DNA from: an uncultured Gammaproteobacteria bacterium
Lineage (GTDB): Bacteria > Pseudomonadota > Gammaproteobacteria > Arenicellales > DRJH01
Length of the DNA stretch: 64,000 nucleotides
Assembly: GCA_964415515.1 (NCBI GenBank)
Contig: CAYQAP010000002.1
Coordinates: 28,443 to 92,442, forward strand
Direction of reading: 5' to 3'
Below are positions 1,572 through 6,949 of the stretch, one piece after another. Both the position numbers and the translations under genes were made by a program. Position 1 is the first letter of the stretch. Every line of letters starts with the position of its first letter. The notes beneath the pieces were generated by a model. The model saw only the letters and a program-made list of their open reading frames with translations, did no database searches and was not told the DNA's origin.

Positions 1572-2006
1572 ATGACAGCAGATACCAATACAACGGTTCA
1601 GGGAATCCGCAACGATCCTTTCGTAAAAGGCATGCTAAAACGTCTGCCCACAGAACAACGAAGCAGCTTCAGTGAGGAACAATTGCTGGGACTTAAGGTG
1701 GCGCTTGGCGCAAGGACATGGGGTACCCACCGCATTGACCTGCGTTGGACCATGAAGTTATGGAAAAAAAGCTACTATATTGTCATTATTGCAGGCGTCA
1801 ATCGAAGGTCCCCCAACCGTCGACAGCAGAAGCTGGCAAGATTAGGAAAGGCCATATTTTTGGCAACACTCTTTCTTATTCTCAGTGTGTTTAGTCTCCT
1901 CCTGCTATACATTATTAAATCTGCACTTGGTATCGACTTGATAGATAATTTTTCTCTCGGTATTTGGTCTGCTATTAAGAATCTTGTTAATGGAGGCCTG
2001 TACTAA
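1572..2006 (+). CDS. Hypothetical small membrane protein
   Basis: 144-aa ORF with a soluble basic N-terminal part followed by two hydrophobic segments (YYIVIIAGV; AIFLATLFLILSVFSLLLLYII). No family recognised. Confidence 0.45.
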   Translation: MTADTNTTVQGIRNDPFVKGMLKRLPTEQRSSFSEEQLLGLKVALGARTWGTHRIDLRWTMKLWKKSYYIVIIAGVNRRSPNRRQQKLARLGKAIFLATLFLILSVFSLLLLYIIKSALGIDLIDNFSLGIWSAIKNLVNGGLY

Positions 2007-2026
2007 GAATAGGTGTACCGGCTATA

Positions 2027-2051
2027 AGTAGTCAGTTTATTCCTGACTACT
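2027..2051. terminator. Hairpin between convergent genes (9-bp stem AGTAGTCAG / CTGACTACT, 7-nt loop)
   Basis: A perfect 9-bp inverted repeat read directly from the sequence. It overlaps the stop codon of the wzy-like gene. There is no U-tract on either side, so terminator function is uncertain. Confidence 0.3.
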
Positions 2052-3215
2052 ATGCAAAGTGTGCTTATAATCAACGGATTTCACTAGCATCATGGTGAGA
2101 ATTTGATAGGTAATATATATAATTGTATTGTCAGTTGGTAATAATGTCATACTGAAAATAAAAACTAATACACTGAAGCAGTTTCGAATAATAATCGTCC
2201 AGATTGCAAGAATGTATAATAATAATCCTATAATACCATATTCGAATTGCAATTTCAGGAAATCATTATGGGGATTATCAAAAATCAGGTAAATAACCTG
2301 TAATGTATTATCTGCAGAACCAATGCCGTGCCCAAATAGAGTTGAAAATATCTCGGTATTTGATACAATACGATTTAATTCACTTTGAATGGCTATCCTG
2401 CCTTGCAGAAAGTAATCTGCAGAAACATCATAGTAGTGAAAATAATTAAGGATAATCCTTGCAAGATAAGCAATATTCATTGCAATTAGATATAGGATAA
2501 TTACATAGATCACAGCAGTAAATAATGATTTTCTATATCTCTGTGTATTCAGGTATTCTCTGGGCTTGAAACCAAATAAATACAAATATGCGCCTAAAGA
2601 TGCCAATAGGGCAAAAAATGCAATTCTCTTAAAAATAATGCCATTCATAAATAGACTGATTGTCATCCATTTATAGTCTTTACGATAAATGAAATATAAT
2701 GAAAAAAGTGCAAACTGGAATGCATTATCTTCTTGCAAGGCAATTGAATCTACCAAATATGATCTTACGTTGAAACTGACATTAGTTTTAAAGGTAAACC
2801 CTACTAATGAATTGATCACAAAAACAATAAACAGGGTTTTTATCATTTTATCTGAAATCGCAACTACGGGTATAAAAGTGATAAATACAGCGCTAATAAT
2901 TAGAAAATCCCGGTAGGAAAAGAATGTTGCATATTGAAGGCTTAATAATGAAAATATAACAGCAATAATATATAAGAACAGCCCCAAAACCATTTTTTTA
3001 TCAAAAAGTATTACTTTTAGGATGACACTATTGAGAATTCCTGATACAAGAGAAATATATGGTAATATGTAAATAAGTTGTTGCAGCCCGGGAATTATAT
3101 TTCTTAAGGTAAATAAGATAGCAAAACTTCCACATACAACCCATCCTTGCCTGATCTTTAATAGTGCTAAAGCATCAGCTCTGGGATCAGAACTTGGAGT
3201 ACAAGATATTACCAT
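2037..3215 (-). CDS. Wzy-type polysaccharide polymerase / O-antigen ligase family (Wzy_C) membrane protein
   Basis: 392 aa, almost entirely hydrophobic segments, very AT-rich codons. The motif HNDFLKLQFEYGIIGLLLY matches the Wzy_C signature (compare HNDYLEFLLETGLIG in 10296..11723). Confidence 0.7.
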   Translation of the reverse strand: MVISCTPSSDPRADALALLKIRQGWVVCGSFAILFTLRNIIPGLQQLIYILPYISLVSGILNSVILKVILFDKKMVLGLFLYIIAVIFSLLSLQYATFFSYRDFLIISAVFITFIPVVAISDKMIKTLFIVFVINSLVGFTFKTNVSFNVRSYLVDSIALQEDNAFQFALFSLYFIYRKDYKWMTISLFMNGIIFKRIAFFALLASLGAYLYLFGFKPREYLNTQRYRKSLFTAVIYVIILYLIAMNIAYLARIILNYFHYYDVSADYFLQGRIAIQSELNRIVSNTEIFSTLFGHGIGSADNTLQVIYLIFDNPHNDFLKLQFEYGIIGLLLYILAIWTIIIRNCFSVLVFIFSMTLLPTDNTIIYITYQILTMMLVKSVDYKHTLHSSQE

Positions 3216-3426
3216 TTTGGTTGCACTTTAAGTATTATACTCTATTAATAAGTTATCAGTATAATTATGGGCTATAATGTATGTTTACAGTTACATCGCA
3301 TTTCACAAAAAGCCAAGTTAATTGATCCATCAGTACAGACTGATTGTAGGCTCATGATCGTGCTATATTTAATTTCAGTTGAATATCATCACATAAACTA
3401 TATTGAGACTAACATATTAACACAAC

Positions 3427-3435
3427 ACTATAATG
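3427..3435. repeat. Left copy of putative 9-bp target-site duplication (ACTATAATG)
   Basis: Directly abuts the left inverted repeat. Matches 8/9 with ACTAAAATG at 4182..4190. Confidence 0.6.
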
Positions 3436-3453
3436 CATATCGTTACCGTTATC
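3436..3453. repeat. Left terminal inverted repeat CATATCGTTACCGTTATC
   Basis: The reverse complement of 4164..4181 is CATACCGTTACCGTTATC, with one mismatch at position 5. Confidence 0.8.
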
Positions 3454-3769
3454 TCGGAAATGGCAATTTCGCTGGACACGGCAAAAATGAATCTGATCTA
3501 ATGCGCTTCAAATCACACCGGAGAGCCCCATGGATGTCCAGCACCTGCCGCAGAAAATCTGTAATCGCCTCTTTGATGCCCAGGCACTGGCCCAGATTCG
3601 TCATATTGTTCATGTTTGCTGCGAGCAAGCCAGCAGGCACAGGCGCCACGGTGCCCCGTTACCGATCAAACAGATCTGGCTGTACCCACTTGCGCAGGGA
3701 TGTTCGCAAACGCTTGTGTGCTCCGCTGCCGCCACTGCCGGTGCTCACCCACTCCGTAGCGGGTTCGAC

Positions 3770-4168
3770 ATGAAGACGGTGACCGCCATTGAACCGCAAA
3801 CAACCCAAACCCTGGCGGATGAGACCCTGGGTATCGAGTTGGGCGACAAACGACTAAATTGGCGTGCCGGCAAGGCGATCGAGCAACTGGGTCGTCAGCC
3901 GCGCAGCAGCATTCCCTCGGCCAACCGGGGCGGGAGTGAACCACGTTCCGCCTATGATCTATTCGCCCATAAGAACACCGAAGCACAGAAGATTCTGCAA
4001 CCGCATTATCAATCGACGCCGGAACGCATAAAACCGCATCCACGGGTGCTGGTGGCTCAAGCCACCACGGAACTGGACTACACCGGCAGGAACGATATTG
4101 TTGGCCTGAAAAGATGTCGAGATTTTGTGTTAGGTATTGCCGCACAAAAAGCAATCGATCAGCGATAA
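3770..4168 (+). pseudogene. Truncated IS4-family transposase (N-terminal DNA-binding region fused in frame to the extreme C-terminus)
   Basis: 132 aa. LGDKRLNWRAGKAIEQL...SIPSA...AYDLFAHKNTEAQKILQPHYQST...VLVAQATTELDYT parallels Tn5 Tnp LGDPRRTARLVNVAAQL...AYRFIRNPNVSAEAIRKAG...LLAIEDTTSLSY. The first DDE Asp position reads QATT instead of (E/Q)DTT. The tail VGLKRCRDFVLGIAAQKAIDQR resembles IS4 C-termini (GLQRLTDFAAG...). The stop codon lies inside the right IR. About 330 aa of the catalytic core are missing. Confidence 0.75.
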
Positions 4169-4181
4169 CGGTAACGGTATG
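4164..4181. repeat. Right terminal inverted repeat GATAACGGTAACGGTATG
   Basis: Reverse complement of the left IR (17/18). Confidence 0.8.
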
Positions 4182-4190
4182 ACTAAAATG
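4182..4190. repeat. Right copy of putative 9-bp target-site duplication (ACTAAAATG)
   Basis: Directly abuts the right IR. Matches 8/9 with 3427..3435. A 9-bp duplication is the size produced by IS50/Tn5-type elements. Confidence 0.6.
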
Positions 4191-4207
4191 ACATAAAGGA
4201 CATTCAC

Positions 4208-4966
4208 TTGTACGATCCTAATCCTCTATTTTTTACTACTTCCTGGGACGATGGCCATCCTATGGACAACCGCCTTGCAGAACTACTTGCAAAATATGAT
4301 ATTCAAGGAACATTCTACATTCCAGCGACTAATATTGAGGGTAGAAGTACACTTACCGAAAAAGATATTATTTCCCTTTCCAGCTCATTCGAAATTGGTG
4401 GCCATACTTATAGCCATATTTATTTGGATAAATTAAGTTCTGATAGAGCCTGGCATGAAATTGTAGATGGTAAAGAGTATATCGAGCAAATACTTGGTAC
4501 TAAAATCTCTGGCTTTTGTTATCCTGGTGGAAAATATAATTGTTCACTAAAACAACTTGTTAAAAATGCTGGATTTGAATATGCCAGAACAATAGCGAAT
4601 TTAAGCATCACACCTGGATATGATCCCTTTCAACTTTCGACAACACTACAATTATATGATCATAGCAAAACTGTATATTGCAGAAATTATCTAAATAACT
4701 TATATCGTGAAAAAGCAAGCTTCGCACTTCTTCTAATATGCTTGAAAACTAACACATTATCACAACGGTTACATAATTGCCTTGACTTCGCACTAAAATC
4801 AGGAGGAATCTTTCACCTCTGGGGCCATTCATGGGAAATTGAAGAATATCAAGGCTGGAAAATACTTGAAAACTTTTTTATGGAAATCAATGGTGTTCTC
4901 GATAAAGACTCAAGAATAACCAATTCTCAAACCGCACAACTATTGGCTAATAATACTATATTATGA
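4208..4966 (+). CDS. Polysaccharide deacetylase (NodB-homology/CE4) family protein, no signal peptide
   Basis: 252 aa with a TTG start preceded by AAAGGA. Motifs TTSWDDGHP (TFDDG-like) and EIGGHTYSH (H-S/T-x-x-H). Confidence 0.75.
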   Translation: MYDPNPLFFTTSWDDGHPMDNRLAELLAKYDIQGTFYIPATNIEGRSTLTEKDIISLSSSFEIGGHTYSHIYLDKLSSDRAWHEIVDGKEYIEQILGTKISGFCYPGGKYNCSLKQLVKNAGFEYARTIANLSITPGYDPFQLSTTLQLYDHSKTVYCRNYLNNLYREKASFALLLICLKTNTLSQRLHNCLDFALKSGGIFHLWGHSWEIEEYQGWKILENFFMEINGVLDKDSRITNSQTAQLLANNTIL

Positions 4967-5772
4967 TGTTCAAAACTCTACTCAGAGCAACATTGGGACC
5001 TGTGATGTTGCCACTGCTTTCTCTATATAACCAACGAGTACATCCCTATGCAGTCATACTTCTTTATCATTCAATATCAGATGAATCAAATATAACTGAT
5101 CCAGTTAATATCTCTGCTTTTCGACAACATATGCAATTCCTGGTACAGAATTATACTGTTATTCCACTCAATTCAATTCAAAAGGCCTTGTCTTCATTTA
5201 ACAAAGGCAGCAAACCTTATGCAATTATTACTTTTGATGATGGATACCTTGATAATTATACCAACGCATTGCCAATTCTCGATGAATTTCATTTACCCGC
5301 CACTTTCTTTCTTGCTACTTCCGAAATAGGAAGTGAAGCTAATCCCAGACTCCGAAGTCAATATGGCATTGAAATCCCAATGATGGATTGGCACCACATT
5401 AAGCAGCTGTTAGCAAGGCATCACTTGATCGGCTCACATACTGAATCACATCATACTATGTTAACTTTGTCGGAAGGACAAAGGATTATTGAACTCAAAA
5501 GATCACAAGAACTGATTCATAGAAATACTGGAGTGCTGACAGAGCTATTTTCTTTACCCTATGGGGACAAATACAGCTACACATACCAGGATTGCATGCA
5601 AGTTTCTAAGTATTATAGAATCTGTTGTAATAATATCCGAGGGAAGAATAGTAAAAAGAATCTTGATCTCATTAATCTTTACAGATATTCAATCACTGGA
5701 TCTATGTGTATAAATCAATTCAAAATGGAGCTAAAAGGTTGTTATGACATTTTGGAGATATTCAGGATTTAA
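4963..5772 (+). CDS. Polysaccharide deacetylase (NodB-homology/CE4) family protein
   Basis: 269 aa. Motifs AIITFDDGYLDNY, LPATFFL and IGSHTESHH. ATGA start/stop overlap with the upstream gene. Confidence 0.8.
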   Translation: MMFKTLLRATLGPVMLPLLSLYNQRVHPYAVILLYHSISDESNITDPVNISAFRQHMQFLVQNYTVIPLNSIQKALSSFNKGSKPYAIITFDDGYLDNYTNALPILDEFHLPATFFLATSEIGSEANPRLRSQYGIEIPMMDWHHIKQLLARHHLIGSHTESHHTMLTLSEGQRIIELKRSQELIHRNTGVLTELFSLPYGDKYSYTYQDCMQVSKYYRICCNNIRGKNSKKNLDLINLYRYSITGSMCINQFKMELKGCYDILEIFRI

Positions 5773-5776
5773 ACAA

Positions 5777-6949
5777 ATGAGGAAATCAACACACTGCGAT
5801 TCTTCGGTGCTTTTTATTGAGCGTATCGTTCCCGCTTACCGGGTCCCCTTTTTTCTTGCTATGTACGAGCTGTTACGGCGTGCATCAATTAAGCTTGCTG
5901 TCGTTGGTGGCGCCTGCATGCCGTCTGAATATCTGACTAACTCACTTGTTGAGCTTCCCTTTGGCCATCCTATCCATAATCACTATCTCTTTCGCAGTAT
6001 TTACTGGCAGTCTGGTCTGTTGCAACTAGCGAAATCATCCCAGCTTATTATCACTGGACAGGAAAATCGTTCCTTAACAACTAACATGATAGTGCTGCGA
6101 CGAAGGCTCACCCGGAGACCACCACTTATTGCCTTCTACGACCATGGCCCAGTATCAGCCGGTTCTTCGCTATACTCATCCCTCAACTATGCGCTGAAAA
6201 AATCTTTAAGCCTGCGTGCAGACTGGTGGTTTGCCTATACAGAACTCAGTAAAAGTCGTCTCATCCAAGCAGGCTATAACCAATCTAGAATCACGGTCGT
6301 AAATAATGCAATTGATACACTGAAACTTTCAGAAGCTGTTGAGAAGATTACCCCTGAAGAATTGACTTCTCTATACAACAAGCTATTTGGAGAAAATATT
6401 ACCTCAACCGATAGTGTAGTAATTGCTATATCCTGTACACGCCTTATTGCAGAAAAAAAAATCAAGGCCCTATTGACTGCATTGGACATGATTTATGCCA
6501 CAACCTCACATTTTCGAATGCTTGTGATTGGCGACGGCCCGATGAAAAGCGACCTTCAGAATTTCTGTCGATCACGATCCTGGTGTAAATATCTAGGAGT
6601 GCTTTATGGAAAAGAGCGTAACCAATATTTTGCTTTGGCTGATGTCTGGTTAAATCCTGGAACAGTTGGCCTCACGGTACTTGATGCCTTTGCTTCCTCA
6701 GCCCCATTGTTTACCACTACATCTCCTTCACACGGGCCGGAAATTTGCTATCTCGAGCACAACAACAATGGAGTGATCACAACTGATGATGTAACTCAAT
6801 ACGCAAACTCCGTCACACAAGTCATTCAAAACCCTAAAGAATTACAACGAATGCAGGCATCGGCAAGACAATCAGCATTACATTATAGTCTCGATTCCAT
6901 GGTCAATCACTTTTCCTCTGGCATCGTGAAAGCCCTGTCAGCGGGTTAA
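5777..6949 (+). CDS. Glycosyltransferase, GT-B fold (GT4/GT1-like)
   Basis: The ORF runs 5744..6949. The ATG at 5777 just after the upstream stop is the likelier start. The C-terminal half (VIGDGPMKSDL..., ADVWLNPGTVGLTVLDAFASSAPLFTT) looks like a retaining GT-B sugar transferase. Confidence 0.65.
   Translation: MRKSTHCDSSVLFIERIVPAYRVPFFLAMYELLRRASIKLAVVGGACMPSEYLTNSLVELPFGHPIHNHYLFRSIYWQSGLLQLAKSSQLIITGQENRSLTTNMIVLRRRLTRRPPLIAFYDHGPVSAGSSLYSSLNYALKKSLSLRADWWFAYTELSKSRLIQAGYNQSRITVVNNAIDTLKLSEAVEKITPEELTSLYNKLFGENITSTDSVVIAISCTRLIAEKKIKALLTALDMIYATTSHFRMLVIGDGPMKSDLQNFCRSRSWCKYLGVLYGKERNQYFALADVWLNPGTVGLTVLDAFASSAPLFTTTSPSHGPEICYLEHNNNGVITTDDVTQYANSVTQVIQNPKELQRMQASARQSALHYSLDSMVNHFSSGIVKALSAG

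Follow-up and report, generated by a model that had tools for sequence, protein, structure and literature searches.

A probable fossil of a two-gene, Tn5/IS50-like insertion sequence upstream of a polysaccharide deacetylase operon in an uncultured gammaproteobacterium

The closest described systems belong to the IS50 subgroup of the IS4 family, for which an end consensus of CW------Y---CA-A--W-, direct repeats of 8–9 bp and a length of 1350–1550 bp have been reported (PMC2266710). The window analyzed in this work is a 64-kb stretch (64,000 nt) of DNA from an uncultured gammaproteobacterium, in which positions 3436–4181 are very probably the fossil of an IS4-family, Tn5/IS50-like insertion sequence (IS) that once carried two genes and has decayed into an ordinary relic. 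Its transposase stub resembles IS50/Tn5 in having the Tn5 N-terminal domain, and its full-length relatives also possess the DDE core, the YREK signature and the dimerisation domain. Also as in IS50, the ends start with C-W, the target is duplicated over 9 bp, the transposase frame stops within the right repeat and target preference is palindrome-like (G-S-Y-T-A-W-R-S-C). This is different from IS50 in that elements of the parent type are 2407–2479 bp long with two ORFs, instead of 1350–1550 bp with a single ORF, and in that the relic, at 746 bp, is devoid of the entire catalytic core.

Boundaries of the element and the empty locus

The element and its flanking genes are arranged as follows.

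2037–3215, minus strand: gene for a membrane protein of the Wzy/O-antigen-ligase type, oriented away from the element (Pfam Wzy_C at 1.7e-5, under the gathering score)
3427–3435, no strand: left copy of the target-site duplication, ACTATAATG
3436–3458, plus strand: left terminal inverted repeat, 18-nt core at 3436–3453, extending to 23 nt (repeat match, relative L105, 12-mer of the relatives)
4159–4181, minus strand: right terminal inverted repeat, 18-nt core at 4164–4181, T>C at position 5 from the tip (repeat match, relatives)
4182–4190, no strand: right copy of the target-site duplication, ACTAAAATG
4208–4966, plus strand: polysaccharide deacetylase gene, starting 27 nt past the right end of the element (Pfam Polysacc_deac_1, 1.9e-19)

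The first-pass annotation had described terminal repeats, a target duplication and a GC-rich interior, and all three were reproduced. The left 18-mer CATATCGTTACCGTTATC (3436–3453) matched the reverse complement of 4164–4181 (CATACCGTTACCGTTATC) at 17 of 18 positions, and the pairing reached 23 nt at 87%. With up to 3 mismatches allowed, the 18-nt repeat occurred twice in the window, at the two element ends, while 0.03 occurrences were expected from shuffled sequences. The flanking 9-mers were identical at 8 of 9 positions, a match level of at least 8/9 being seen in 3.3e-4 of position pairs when two 9-mers were taken from the surrounding low-GC DNA. GC content was 0.550 in the element (3436–4181) versus 0.307 in the left (2037–3435) and 0.353 in the right flank (4182–5772), a contrast of 24 points with the left flank.

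The 18-bp ends had also been called intact, which proved incorrect for the right end: it has C at position 5, where T is present at both ends of all 9 complete relatives, and the pattern used to search for family ends had permitted either base there. Occurrence of the repeat in other IS copies, on which the IS assignment had been made to depend, was observed: L105, a copy found in the genome search described below, has exactly the same 18-mer at its left end, and the first 12 nt (CATATCGTTACC) are common to the left end in the window and both ends of the 9 complete relatives. Compared with the subgroup consensus, the left end in the window fits at positions 1, 2, 9, 16, and 19 and not at 13–14 (5/7), while the fit is 6/7 for relative L003 and 7/7 for the single-gene relatives L173 and L175.

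A related metagenome-assembled genome (MAG), L176, contains the syntenic locus, with the orthologue of the Wzy-like gene in conserved position, and its spacer there is 251 bp long with no IS-derived DNA; the unaligned gap at the locus is 326 bp in L176 versus 1058 bp in the window. Thus, the insert is absent from a relative, as the first-pass annotation had proposed to check, but the empty site ACTA(T/A)AATG was not recovered at the base level because the flanking genes of L176 are too diverged (64–73% nucleotide identity). The uninterrupted site would have read ACACAACACTA(T/A)AATGACATAAAGG. The missing base-level site is the one point, and nothing more, in favor of regarding the region as native DNA with a chance pair of repeats. 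To this reading we assign practically no probability; it is refuted by the rarity of the repeat pair and the duplication, the GC contrast, the insert-free L176 locus and the homology to complete mobile elements, which covers both genes, both termini and the leader.

Two-gene relatives and the remnants in the window copy

Full-length relatives were found in metagenomes as elements of 2.4–2.5 kb sharing the terminal 12-mer and a 94-nt leader. Their two genes encode a 312–325-aa DUF4338 protein (Pfam name "DruA", GNAT fold) and a 464–467-aa Tn5-type transposase and are joined by an ATGA overlap, which is common to the window copy, L003, L139, and L177–L180. They exceed the 1350–1550 bp of the subgroup because the DUF4338 gene lies between leader and transposase. 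Complete elements measured 2433 bp (L139), 2479 bp (L003/L131), and 2407 bp (L151); L003 is a 2480-bp contig representing approximately one complete element, with termini and leader length as in the window copy. A left-end pattern specific for the family gave 49 metagenome matches, 47 of them true ends, with 9 complete copies of 1592–2479 bp; the remaining two (L129 and L149) were chance matches and not IS ends. Of the 18 metagenome copies that offered 250 nt or more of internal sequence, 17 had the DUF4338 gene after the leader. L003 and L105 have it there as well, and in L105 the beginning of this gene is intact. Relatives with a single gene, of about 1.48 kb, were also present, with approximately 44% amino-acid identity.

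The two-gene family occupies 39 distinct insertion sites and is clearly active elsewhere. A 9-bp duplication (GGCAATACC, 9/9) was present on both sides of L131 and one with 7/9 matches in L157; the direct repeats of L131 and of the window copy (9 bp, 8/9) are within the 8–9 bp of the IS50 subgroup. No 9-bp duplication was seen in the flanks of the complete relatives L145, L148/L161, L151, and L153, an absence that could stem from metagenome contigs assembled chimerically across a multi-copy repeat. Some derivatives with internal deletions have good ends, such as L153 (1592 bp), without the DUF4338 gene and with an intact transposase, and truncated transposases were found in L177 and L180.

An exhaustive HMMER search detected 1628 homologues of the window transposase ORF, the closest full-length one being P0003 (467 aa); a word-indexed protein search with the same ORF matched only the identical copy in a metagenome contig (L001, see below) and one fragment. 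The transposases of P0003 and L139 consist of Tnp_DNA_bind, DDE_Tnp_1, and Dimer_Tnp_Tn5 domains, the last at 6.9e-24 in L139. The L139 transposase scored 373 bits with NCBIfam NF033590 'IS4 family transposase' (cut-off 160), matched Tn5 transposase crystal structures over aa 26–448 (E = 4e-33) and carries the Y-x2-R-x3-E-x6-K signature as YLCRWQIEIFFRILK. The full-length relatives therefore have the DDE/YREK core and Tn5 dimerisation domain that are criteria of the IS50 subgroup.

The window copy is similar to the two-gene elements L139, L003/L131, and L151 in terminal 12-mer, leader, gene order and ATGA overlap. It differs from them in having 70–73% nucleotide identity and in the loss of about 1.7 kb, a frameshift, an Asp to Ala replacement and the right-end substitution. 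Its internal features are as follows.

3459–3529, plus strand: leader, with the conserved CTGGACAC box at 3472–3479 and GGAG before the ATG (94 nt from the left end to the first ATG, as in L003; blocks common to L105, L139, and L003)
3530–3634, plus strand: N-terminal stub, aa 1–35, of the first IS gene, orfA (DUF4338/Pfam DruA; tblastn)
3635–3637, plus strand: junction of deletion 1, approximate (N-terminal stub ends at 3634; C-terminal stub from 3638 corresponds to L139 orfA aa 276)
3638–3773, plus strand: C-terminal remnant of the DUF4338 gene (about aa 276 onward), with a frameshift at about 3689–3693 and the native TGA (3771–3773) overlapping the transposase ATG (ATGA)
3770–4108, plus strand: N-terminal part of the transposase, aa 1–113, covering the DNA-binding domain and the stretch around the first catalytic Asp, here Ala (Pfam, NCBIfam, L139)
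4100–4108, plus strand: junction of deletion 2 on GTT GGC CTG (V-G-L), with Gly-Leu on both sides in full-length relatives
4109–4168, plus strand: C-terminal tail of the transposase, KRCRDFVLGIAAQKAIDQR, with stop codon TAA at 4166–4168

In the first-pass annotation, ORF 3770–4168 was taken to start with a Tn5-type N-terminal region, to reach an altered first DDE block and to jump in frame to a C-terminal tail ending in the right repeat. Each of these steps was confirmed. The ORF matched Pfam Tnp_DNA_bind (PF14706; E = 1.7e-10, 40.9 bits, cut-off 24), and hence has a Tn5-type DNA-binding domain, and NCBIfam NF049926 (IS4/Tn5 N-terminal domain; 1.8e-7, 30.7 bits, cut-off 27). Its aa 15–113 correspond to P0003 aa 8–106 (56% identity) and its aa 111–132 to P0003 aa 444–465 (59%); with the L139 transposase, the N-terminal part shares 60% identity (L139 aa 15–117) and the tail 67% (aa 441–464). 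The first DDE block reads QATTELDY, Asp being present in 141 of 148 homologues, and the Ala codon GCC (4061–4063) falls in the column that Tn5 transposase structures fill with the Asp of EDTT. The TAA is located inside the right repeat. The claim that 3770–4168 is the sole coherent ORF was not upheld: the frame is open from the ATG at 3530 for 212 aa, and the part upstream of 3770 is homologous to a second gene of the IS.

The 334 bp to the left of the transposase ATG comprise the leader and N- and C-terminal stubs of the DUF4338/DruA-family gene. Nucleotide identity to L105 was 79% over element nt 1–98. The N-terminal stub corresponds to aa 1–35 of L139 orfA at 43% and to aa 1–27 of L003 and L151 orfA. 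In the C-terminal stub, RHGAPLPIKQIWLYPL corresponds to orfA aa 277–293, followed in the next frame by RRDVRKRLCAPL, similar to RRDARKRLCAPL of L151 orfA. Amino-acid identity of the four retained stubs to the two-gene relatives was 43–60%.

The earlier description of an internally deleted IS4/IS50-like element is thus correct as to the IS4 family, Tn5/IS50 likeness, inverted repeats and 9-bp duplication, but there are two deletions and the parent had two genes. Deletion 1 removed about 240 codons of the DUF4338 gene in frame, with a breakpoint that is approximate for lack of the true parent sequence, and deletion 2 removed about 323 codons of the transposase, also in frame; the junction sequences are GCCAGCAGGCACAGGCGCCAC and GATATTGTTGGCCTGAAAAGATGTCG. 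Adding the losses to the element (746 + ~720 + ~969) gives ~2435 bp versus 2433 bp for L139. A +1 frameshift (CTT-G-CGC in the window versus CTG-CGT in L151) fuses all the stubs into the single 212-aa ORF. At the breakpoint of deletion 2, full-length relatives have Gly-Leu on both the N side (NDIDGL/GTL) and the C side (IWIGL/QRC), and this deletion probably arose between short direct repeats encoding Gly-Leu, by slippage or recombination. The core that would hold the DDE triad and YREK signature (approximately aa 118–440) is deleted. Because of this loss, and because the remaining catalytic position is Ala and not Asp, the window copy is a non-functional derivative and not a working member of the family, and it is unable to transpose by itself.

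Residence at one site and alternative readings

The same element, with the same lesions at the same site, was present in L001, with 99.6% identity over the element and 98.9% over 2987 bp. Differences from L001 numbered 3 in 746 positions of the element versus 8 in 193 of the left flank. Apparent frameshifts in the deacetylase gene of L001 were set aside, as this contig contains Ns and the kind of single-base indels that assembly errors produce. The mutated target duplication and the sharing of the lesions by two strains about 1% apart both point to long residence at one site, and the relic probably became immobile before the two sampled strains separated.

No second copy of the 746-bp derivative was detected in the window, in the JGI metagenomes or among the matches listed from 185,579 GTDB species-representative genomes, and the same sources yielded no close full-length parent; no parent IS of more than 90% identity was found, the best relatives having 70–73% nucleotide identity and L105 79% over its first 98 nt. 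No other transposase or DUF4338 homologue was present elsewhere in the window, and searches with the element DNA found no counterpart in E. coli genomes (near mode) or in plasmids (distant mode). Scanning the representative genomes with the 18-mer returned at least 119 loci; among the matches listed, 81 were the glutamine synthetase motif GDNGNGMHVH, the others were mostly unrelated coding DNA, and L105 was the sole true IS end. Repeat-only searches give mostly false matches because one arm of the 18-nt repeat coincides with this conserved coding motif.

These results bear on the term MITE-like, applied earlier to the element together with the idea that it is moved in trans, now or recently, by a full-length copy elsewhere. 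The element does resemble a MITE: it is short, is bounded by terminal repeats and a target duplication and encodes no working transposase. A mobilizable state would agree with the presence of both repeats and the 9-bp duplication, the left 18-mer shared with L105 and its intact first-gene start, the activity of the family at its 39 sites and the existence of other good-ended deletion derivatives and truncated transposases. It differs from a MITE in its recognizable coding stubs, in one end being mutated at a position invariant in the 9 complete relatives and in being single-copy: instead of several near-identical copies at different sites, a single locus (the window and its allele L001), with no second derivative or junction copy and no close parent, was found in the data searched, including the listed genome matches. 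With the window free of any other transposase or DUF4338 homologue, the duplication mutated and the lesions common to both strains, present or recent mobilization is improbable, and the MITE-like reading is not supported.

Expression of the 212-aa fused ORF (3530–4168) as a useful protein, e.g., a DNA-binding regulator or a transposase inhibitor, was also considered. In its favor, two deletions and a frameshift have left a frame of 212 codons open, no part of the Tn5-type DNA-binding domain is missing, and divergence from L001 is lower in the element than in the left flank. The sole L001 difference within 3770–4168 (position 4042) is synonymous and leaves the protein unchanged. Against this, chance alone would give deletions that stay in frame in about 1 of 9 cases, and a selection test would need far more than three differences. 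The fusion came about through a frameshift, so that the tail of the first gene is read in a non-homologous frame, and no other protein of this architecture except the identical L001 copy was found in the word-indexed and exhaustive protein searches. Domestication is very improbable in our estimate; former coding DNA at 55% GC could leave such a frame open as it decays, and selection could also maintain it.

A further possibility is that the relic separates the deacetylase operon from its native promoter region, so that expression would depend on read-through or on a promoter borne by the element. The location in the divergent spacer 3215–4208, 27 nt upstream of the operon, the orientation of the IS genes toward it, the absence of terminator-like sites within the element and its retention in two strains would suit such a role. 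Promoter-like sites numbered 4 versus 2.2 expected from shuffles, which is no excess. This regulatory role, which we consider rather unlikely, is compatible with the fossil reading and not an alternative to it.

The following history very probably accounts for this fossil of a two-gene IS. The parent was about 2.4–2.5 kb long and began with the left repeat and a 94-nt leader; a DUF4338/GNAT-fold gene came next, joined by the ATGA overlap to a Tn5-type transposase whose stop codon lay in the right repeat. It would have inserted by cut-and-paste into the AT-rich spacer between the Wzy-like gene and the polysaccharide deacetylase operon, and a 9-bp staggered cut would have produced the direct repeat ACTA(T/A)AATG. 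Decay would then have involved in-frame loss of about 240 codons of the first gene, in-frame loss of about 323 transposase codons, probably via the Gly-Leu-encoding repeats, the +1 frameshift, replacement of the first catalytic Asp by Ala, and two substitutions, one altering the right terminal repeat and the other the target duplication.

The DUF4338 gene of the two-gene family

The first gene of the parent IS type matched Pfam PF14236 'DruA' at 1.5e-45, and DUF4338 has been assigned to the GNAT fold (PMC10853773). The predicted structure of the protein (pLDDT 86.9) matches GNAT folds, the best match being Mu Mom (8bv8_B; E = 1.2e-5, TM 0.40/0.60). According to this model, the protein would have an N-terminal helical domain and a GNAT fold most similar to that of the DNA-modifying Mom of phage Mu. 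The window copy holds none of the GNAT core because only aa 1–35 and about 276 to the end remain.

The gene shares the DUF4338 Pfam with DruA of Druantia and differs in its location within an IS, where its neighbor is always a Tn5-like transposase between the IS ends. Identity with Druantia DruA was rejected, since PADLOC DruA models gave only 18.5 and 13.4 bits on the IS-borne protein and no other Druantia genes lie alongside. In the searchable literature, no relevant description of DUF4338 or DruA with a transposase or Tn5 was found, and RefSeq annotates the two-gene IS piecemeal as 'DUF4338 domain-containing protein' and 'IS4 family transposase' (Ca. Thiodictyon syntrophicum pTs485). The accessory gene is represented by at least 6029 protein clusters, mostly on contigs of 1–3 kb. 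It is conceivable, and suggested here only tentatively, that these elements form an abundant, apparently unnamed clade of Tn5-like IS in which a DUF4338 protein of about 310 aa is always translationally coupled (ATGA) upstream of the transposase and provides an IS-borne accessory function. L153 gives a hint that the element can keep its integrity without the gene.

For the host genome, the relic means little: it marks where an IS landed long ago, directly in front of a low-GC polysaccharide operon of horizontal origin, the transcription of which it may affect. It did lead to a widespread two-gene variant of Tn5-like IS. If the DUF4338 protein modifies DNA or the transposition machinery, it would give IS elements an accessory function of a new type and would link their accessory genes with DruA of the Druantia defence systems.

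Ends and setting of the element

The 746-bp element (3436-4181) occupies the spacer of two divergent genes in a low-GC polysaccharide cluster. Its neighbors are as follows.

2037-3215, minus strand: Wzy-like gene, left neighbor
4208-4966, plus strand: polysaccharide deacetylase, right neighbor, starting 27 nt past the right end of the element

A second deacetylase, glycosyltransferases, and a second Wzy_C protein are encoded downstream of the deacetylase. The GC content of the cluster (about 2000-6000) is 30-36%, with a window mean of 50.7%; this contrast suggests that the cluster is an O-antigen or capsule-type island gained by horizontal transfer.

The left terminal repeat, CATATCGTTACCGTTATC (3436-3453), was identical at 17 of 18 positions to the reverse complement of 4164-4181, and a longer version spans 23 nt at 87%. 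When up to 3 mismatches were allowed, the 18-mer occurred only twice in the whole window (0.03 expected). The abutting 9-mers, ACTATAATG (3427-3435) and ACTAAAATG (4182-4190), matched at 8 of 9 positions, as expected by chance for 3.3e-4 of position pairs in the surrounding low-GC DNA. The GC content was 55.0% for the element versus 30.7% and 35.3% for the left and right flanks, respectively. The inverted repeat, flanking 9-mers, and GC contrast described in the first-pass annotation were thus all reproduced. Within the element, no terminator-like sites were found and promoter-like sites were at background level; as judged from the sequence, transcription might run on through it into the deacetylase operon.

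Transposase remnant and two-gene parent

Pfam Tnp_DNA_bind matched the ORF at 3770-4168 (E = 1.7e-10), and no DNA similar to the element was detected in plasmids or in E. coli genomes. An exhaustive HMMER search returned 1628 transposase homologues, the nearest full-length one being P0003, a 467-aa transposase. It aligned in two separate stretches, aa 8-106 with window aa 15-113 (56% identity) and aa 444-465 with window aa 111-132 (59% identity), indicating that the proposed in-frame jump to the C-terminal tail is real. P0003 and its relatives possess Tnp_DNA_bind, DDE_Tnp_1, and the Tn5 dimerisation domain. The transposase of L139, a full-length relative, scored 373 bits with NCBIfam "IS4 family transposase" and aligned over nearly its full length with Tn5 transposase crystal structures (4e-33); the earlier IS4/IS50-like assignment is correct. 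The QATT noted at the first DDE block was also confirmed: within QATTELDY, the Ala column is occupied by Asp in 141 of 148 homologues and, when aligned to Tn5, corresponds to the Asp of EDTT, which in Tn5 is the first catalytic Asp, D97. Another such gene, closely related and likewise reduced to a decayed piece (L002, 160-351), shared 83% nucleotide identity with window 3769-3960; its homology begins exactly at the ATG and stops abruptly, and it has no terminal repeat.

The contig encoding P0003 (L003, 2480 bp) is in essence a single complete element, starting with CATATCGTTACCC and ending with GGGTAACGATATG. It contains two genes, with an ATGA overlap.

96-1073: DUF4338 protein (Pfam PF14236, now "DruA"), 325 aa
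1070-2473: transposase gene

The window element has the same layout, including an identical terminal 12-mer, a first ATG at the same 94-nt distance from the left end, and ATGA at 3770-3773. By tblastn, window 3530-3634 corresponds to DUF4338 aa 1-35, and the DNA from 3638 onward to aa 276 through the end of that gene. Two in-frame deletions were therefore evident, one of about 240 codons of the DUF4338 gene, leaving none of the GNAT core of its protein, and one of about 323 codons of the transposase. Restoring both gives about 2435 bp (746 + 720 + 969), close to the 2433 bp of L139. The transposase junction falls on Gly-Leu codons, and Gly-Leu on both sides in full-length relatives suggests that this deletion may have occurred between short repeats. 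Past IWLYPL, the DUF4338 homology shifts to the next frame, window RRDVRKRLCAPL corresponding to RRDARKRLCAPL in the full-length relative L151, owing to one added base (CTT-G-CGC in the window, CTG-CGT in L151). Because this frameshift accidentally links the DUF4338 gene start to the transposase frame, the window shows a single ORF (3530-4168, 212 aa). The element is indeed internally deleted, as first annotated, but its parent had two genes, and the window copy carries two deletions and a frameshift.

Complete relatives, alleles, and possible residual mobility

A left-end pattern derived from three elements (CATATCGTTACC, 22-27 nt, then CTGGACAC) detected 49 loci in the metagenome collection, 47 of which were genuine. 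Eight of these and L003 made up nine complete copies, five of 2479 bp and the others of 2472, 2433, 2407, and 1592 bp. A perfect 9-bp duplication flanked L131 and a 7/9 match flanked L157; the flanking 9-mers of several other complete copies showed no duplication, for which chimeric assembly may be the explanation. Distinct 9-mers abutting family left ends (L105 and L123-L171, n = 39) gave the palindrome-like consensus G-S-Y-T-A-W-R-S-C, of which the window's ACTA(T/A)AATG matches just the central part. The target preference of Tn5 resembles this consensus. Among more distantly related elements are single-gene ones of ~1.48 kb; their ends, for example CATGCCGTTATACATAAGT, fit the IS50-subgroup consensus (PMC2266710, Table 1).

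Searching with the 18-nt repeat alone was misleading here. A scan of genome contigs with CATACCGTTACCGTTATC yielded at least 119 loci (L004-L122); the right-arm variant of the repeat, read on the opposite strand, encodes the glutamine synthetase motif GDNGNGMHVH, which accounts for 81 of the 119 matches listed. The only true IS end among those listed, L105, has an 18-mer identical to that of the window and 79% identity over the first 98 nt.

The first-pass annotation considered the element a MITE-like derivative with intact ends, mobilisable in trans. The ends do match at 17 of 18 positions; however, CATATCGTTACC is present at both ends in all nine complete copies, whereas the right end of the window element reads CATACC, altered at an invariant position. 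The key support for the MITE-like reading, multiple copies and a cognate partner, was also lacking: the best nucleotide identity to the element was 70-73%, the window's junctions were absent from all recovered loci, and the rest of the window had no further homologue of either gene and no further terminal 12-mer. This reading is therefore unsupported, and the element is probably immobile.

The sole other occurrence of the relic found was a metagenome allele of the same locus (L001, 2987 bp, 98.9% identity). Both share the insertion, junctions, frameshift, right-end change, and duplication mismatch, so all lesions are older than the split of the two strains. The two differ at 8/193 positions in the AT-rich left flank (3243-3435), at 3/746 in the element, and by about 0.4-1% in the downstream genes. 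In a Gammaproteobacteria MAG (L176), the gene order is kept (epimerase, 144-aa gene, Wzy-like gene, then two deacetylases), and the divergent genes are 251 bp apart with no IS-derived DNA in the spacer. The comparison proposed earlier for the empty site thus provided a locus without the insert, but its flanks were too diverged for base-level alignment of the site.

The DUF4338 gene of the parent clade

Of the 18 metagenome copies long enough to judge, 17 carry the DUF4338 gene after the leader, as do L003 and L105. The exception, L153, is an independent 1592-bp deletion derivative with good termini, in which a 505-aa ORF joins DUF4338 aa 1-26 in frame to an intact transposase; this is a hint that element integrity does not depend on the accessory gene. 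In two contigs from different samples (L177 4433-5482, L180 1390-2439), the DUF4338 gene precedes a 349-aa truncated transposase whose sole domain match is the DNA-binding domain, another recurring decay form. Together, these fusions and truncations indicate that internal deletions are common in this family. A RefSeq two-gene example, on Ca. Thiodictyon syntrophicum plasmid pTs485 (NZ_CP020372.1 279593-286438), has a diverged left end (TATTACCCACATCTC ... CTGGACAC), with a site-specific integrase and an IS91-family transposase annotated between the DUF4338 and IS4-family transposase genes.

In full-length relatives, the DUF4338 protein (312-325 aa) is encoded after the leader and ahead of the Tn5-like transposase gene, which it overlaps by ATGA. 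It matched Pfam DruA at 1.5e-45 and the PADLOC Druantia DruA models at 18.5 bits only. Homologues formed at least 6029 clusters (E <= 1e-10). Contigs of 1-3 kb carry nearly all of these, under no name other than "hypothetical" or "DUF4338 domain-containing protein", and no sequence relative was found in the PDB. An AlphaFold2 model from a 50-sequence alignment (pLDDT 86.9, pTM 0.67) showed an N-terminal helical region and an alpha/beta domain matching GNAT acetyltransferases. The best PDB match was phage Mu Mom (8bv8_B, E = 1.2e-5, TM 0.40/0.60); the model agrees with the published GNAT assignment of DUF4338 (PMC10853773). In the searchable literature, no connection between DUF4338 and an IS was found.

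The window element is an ordinary IS fossil, a decayed new member of an established IS type. Its wider potential would lie solely in the uncharacterised gene of predicted GNAT fold carried by the parent IS clade.
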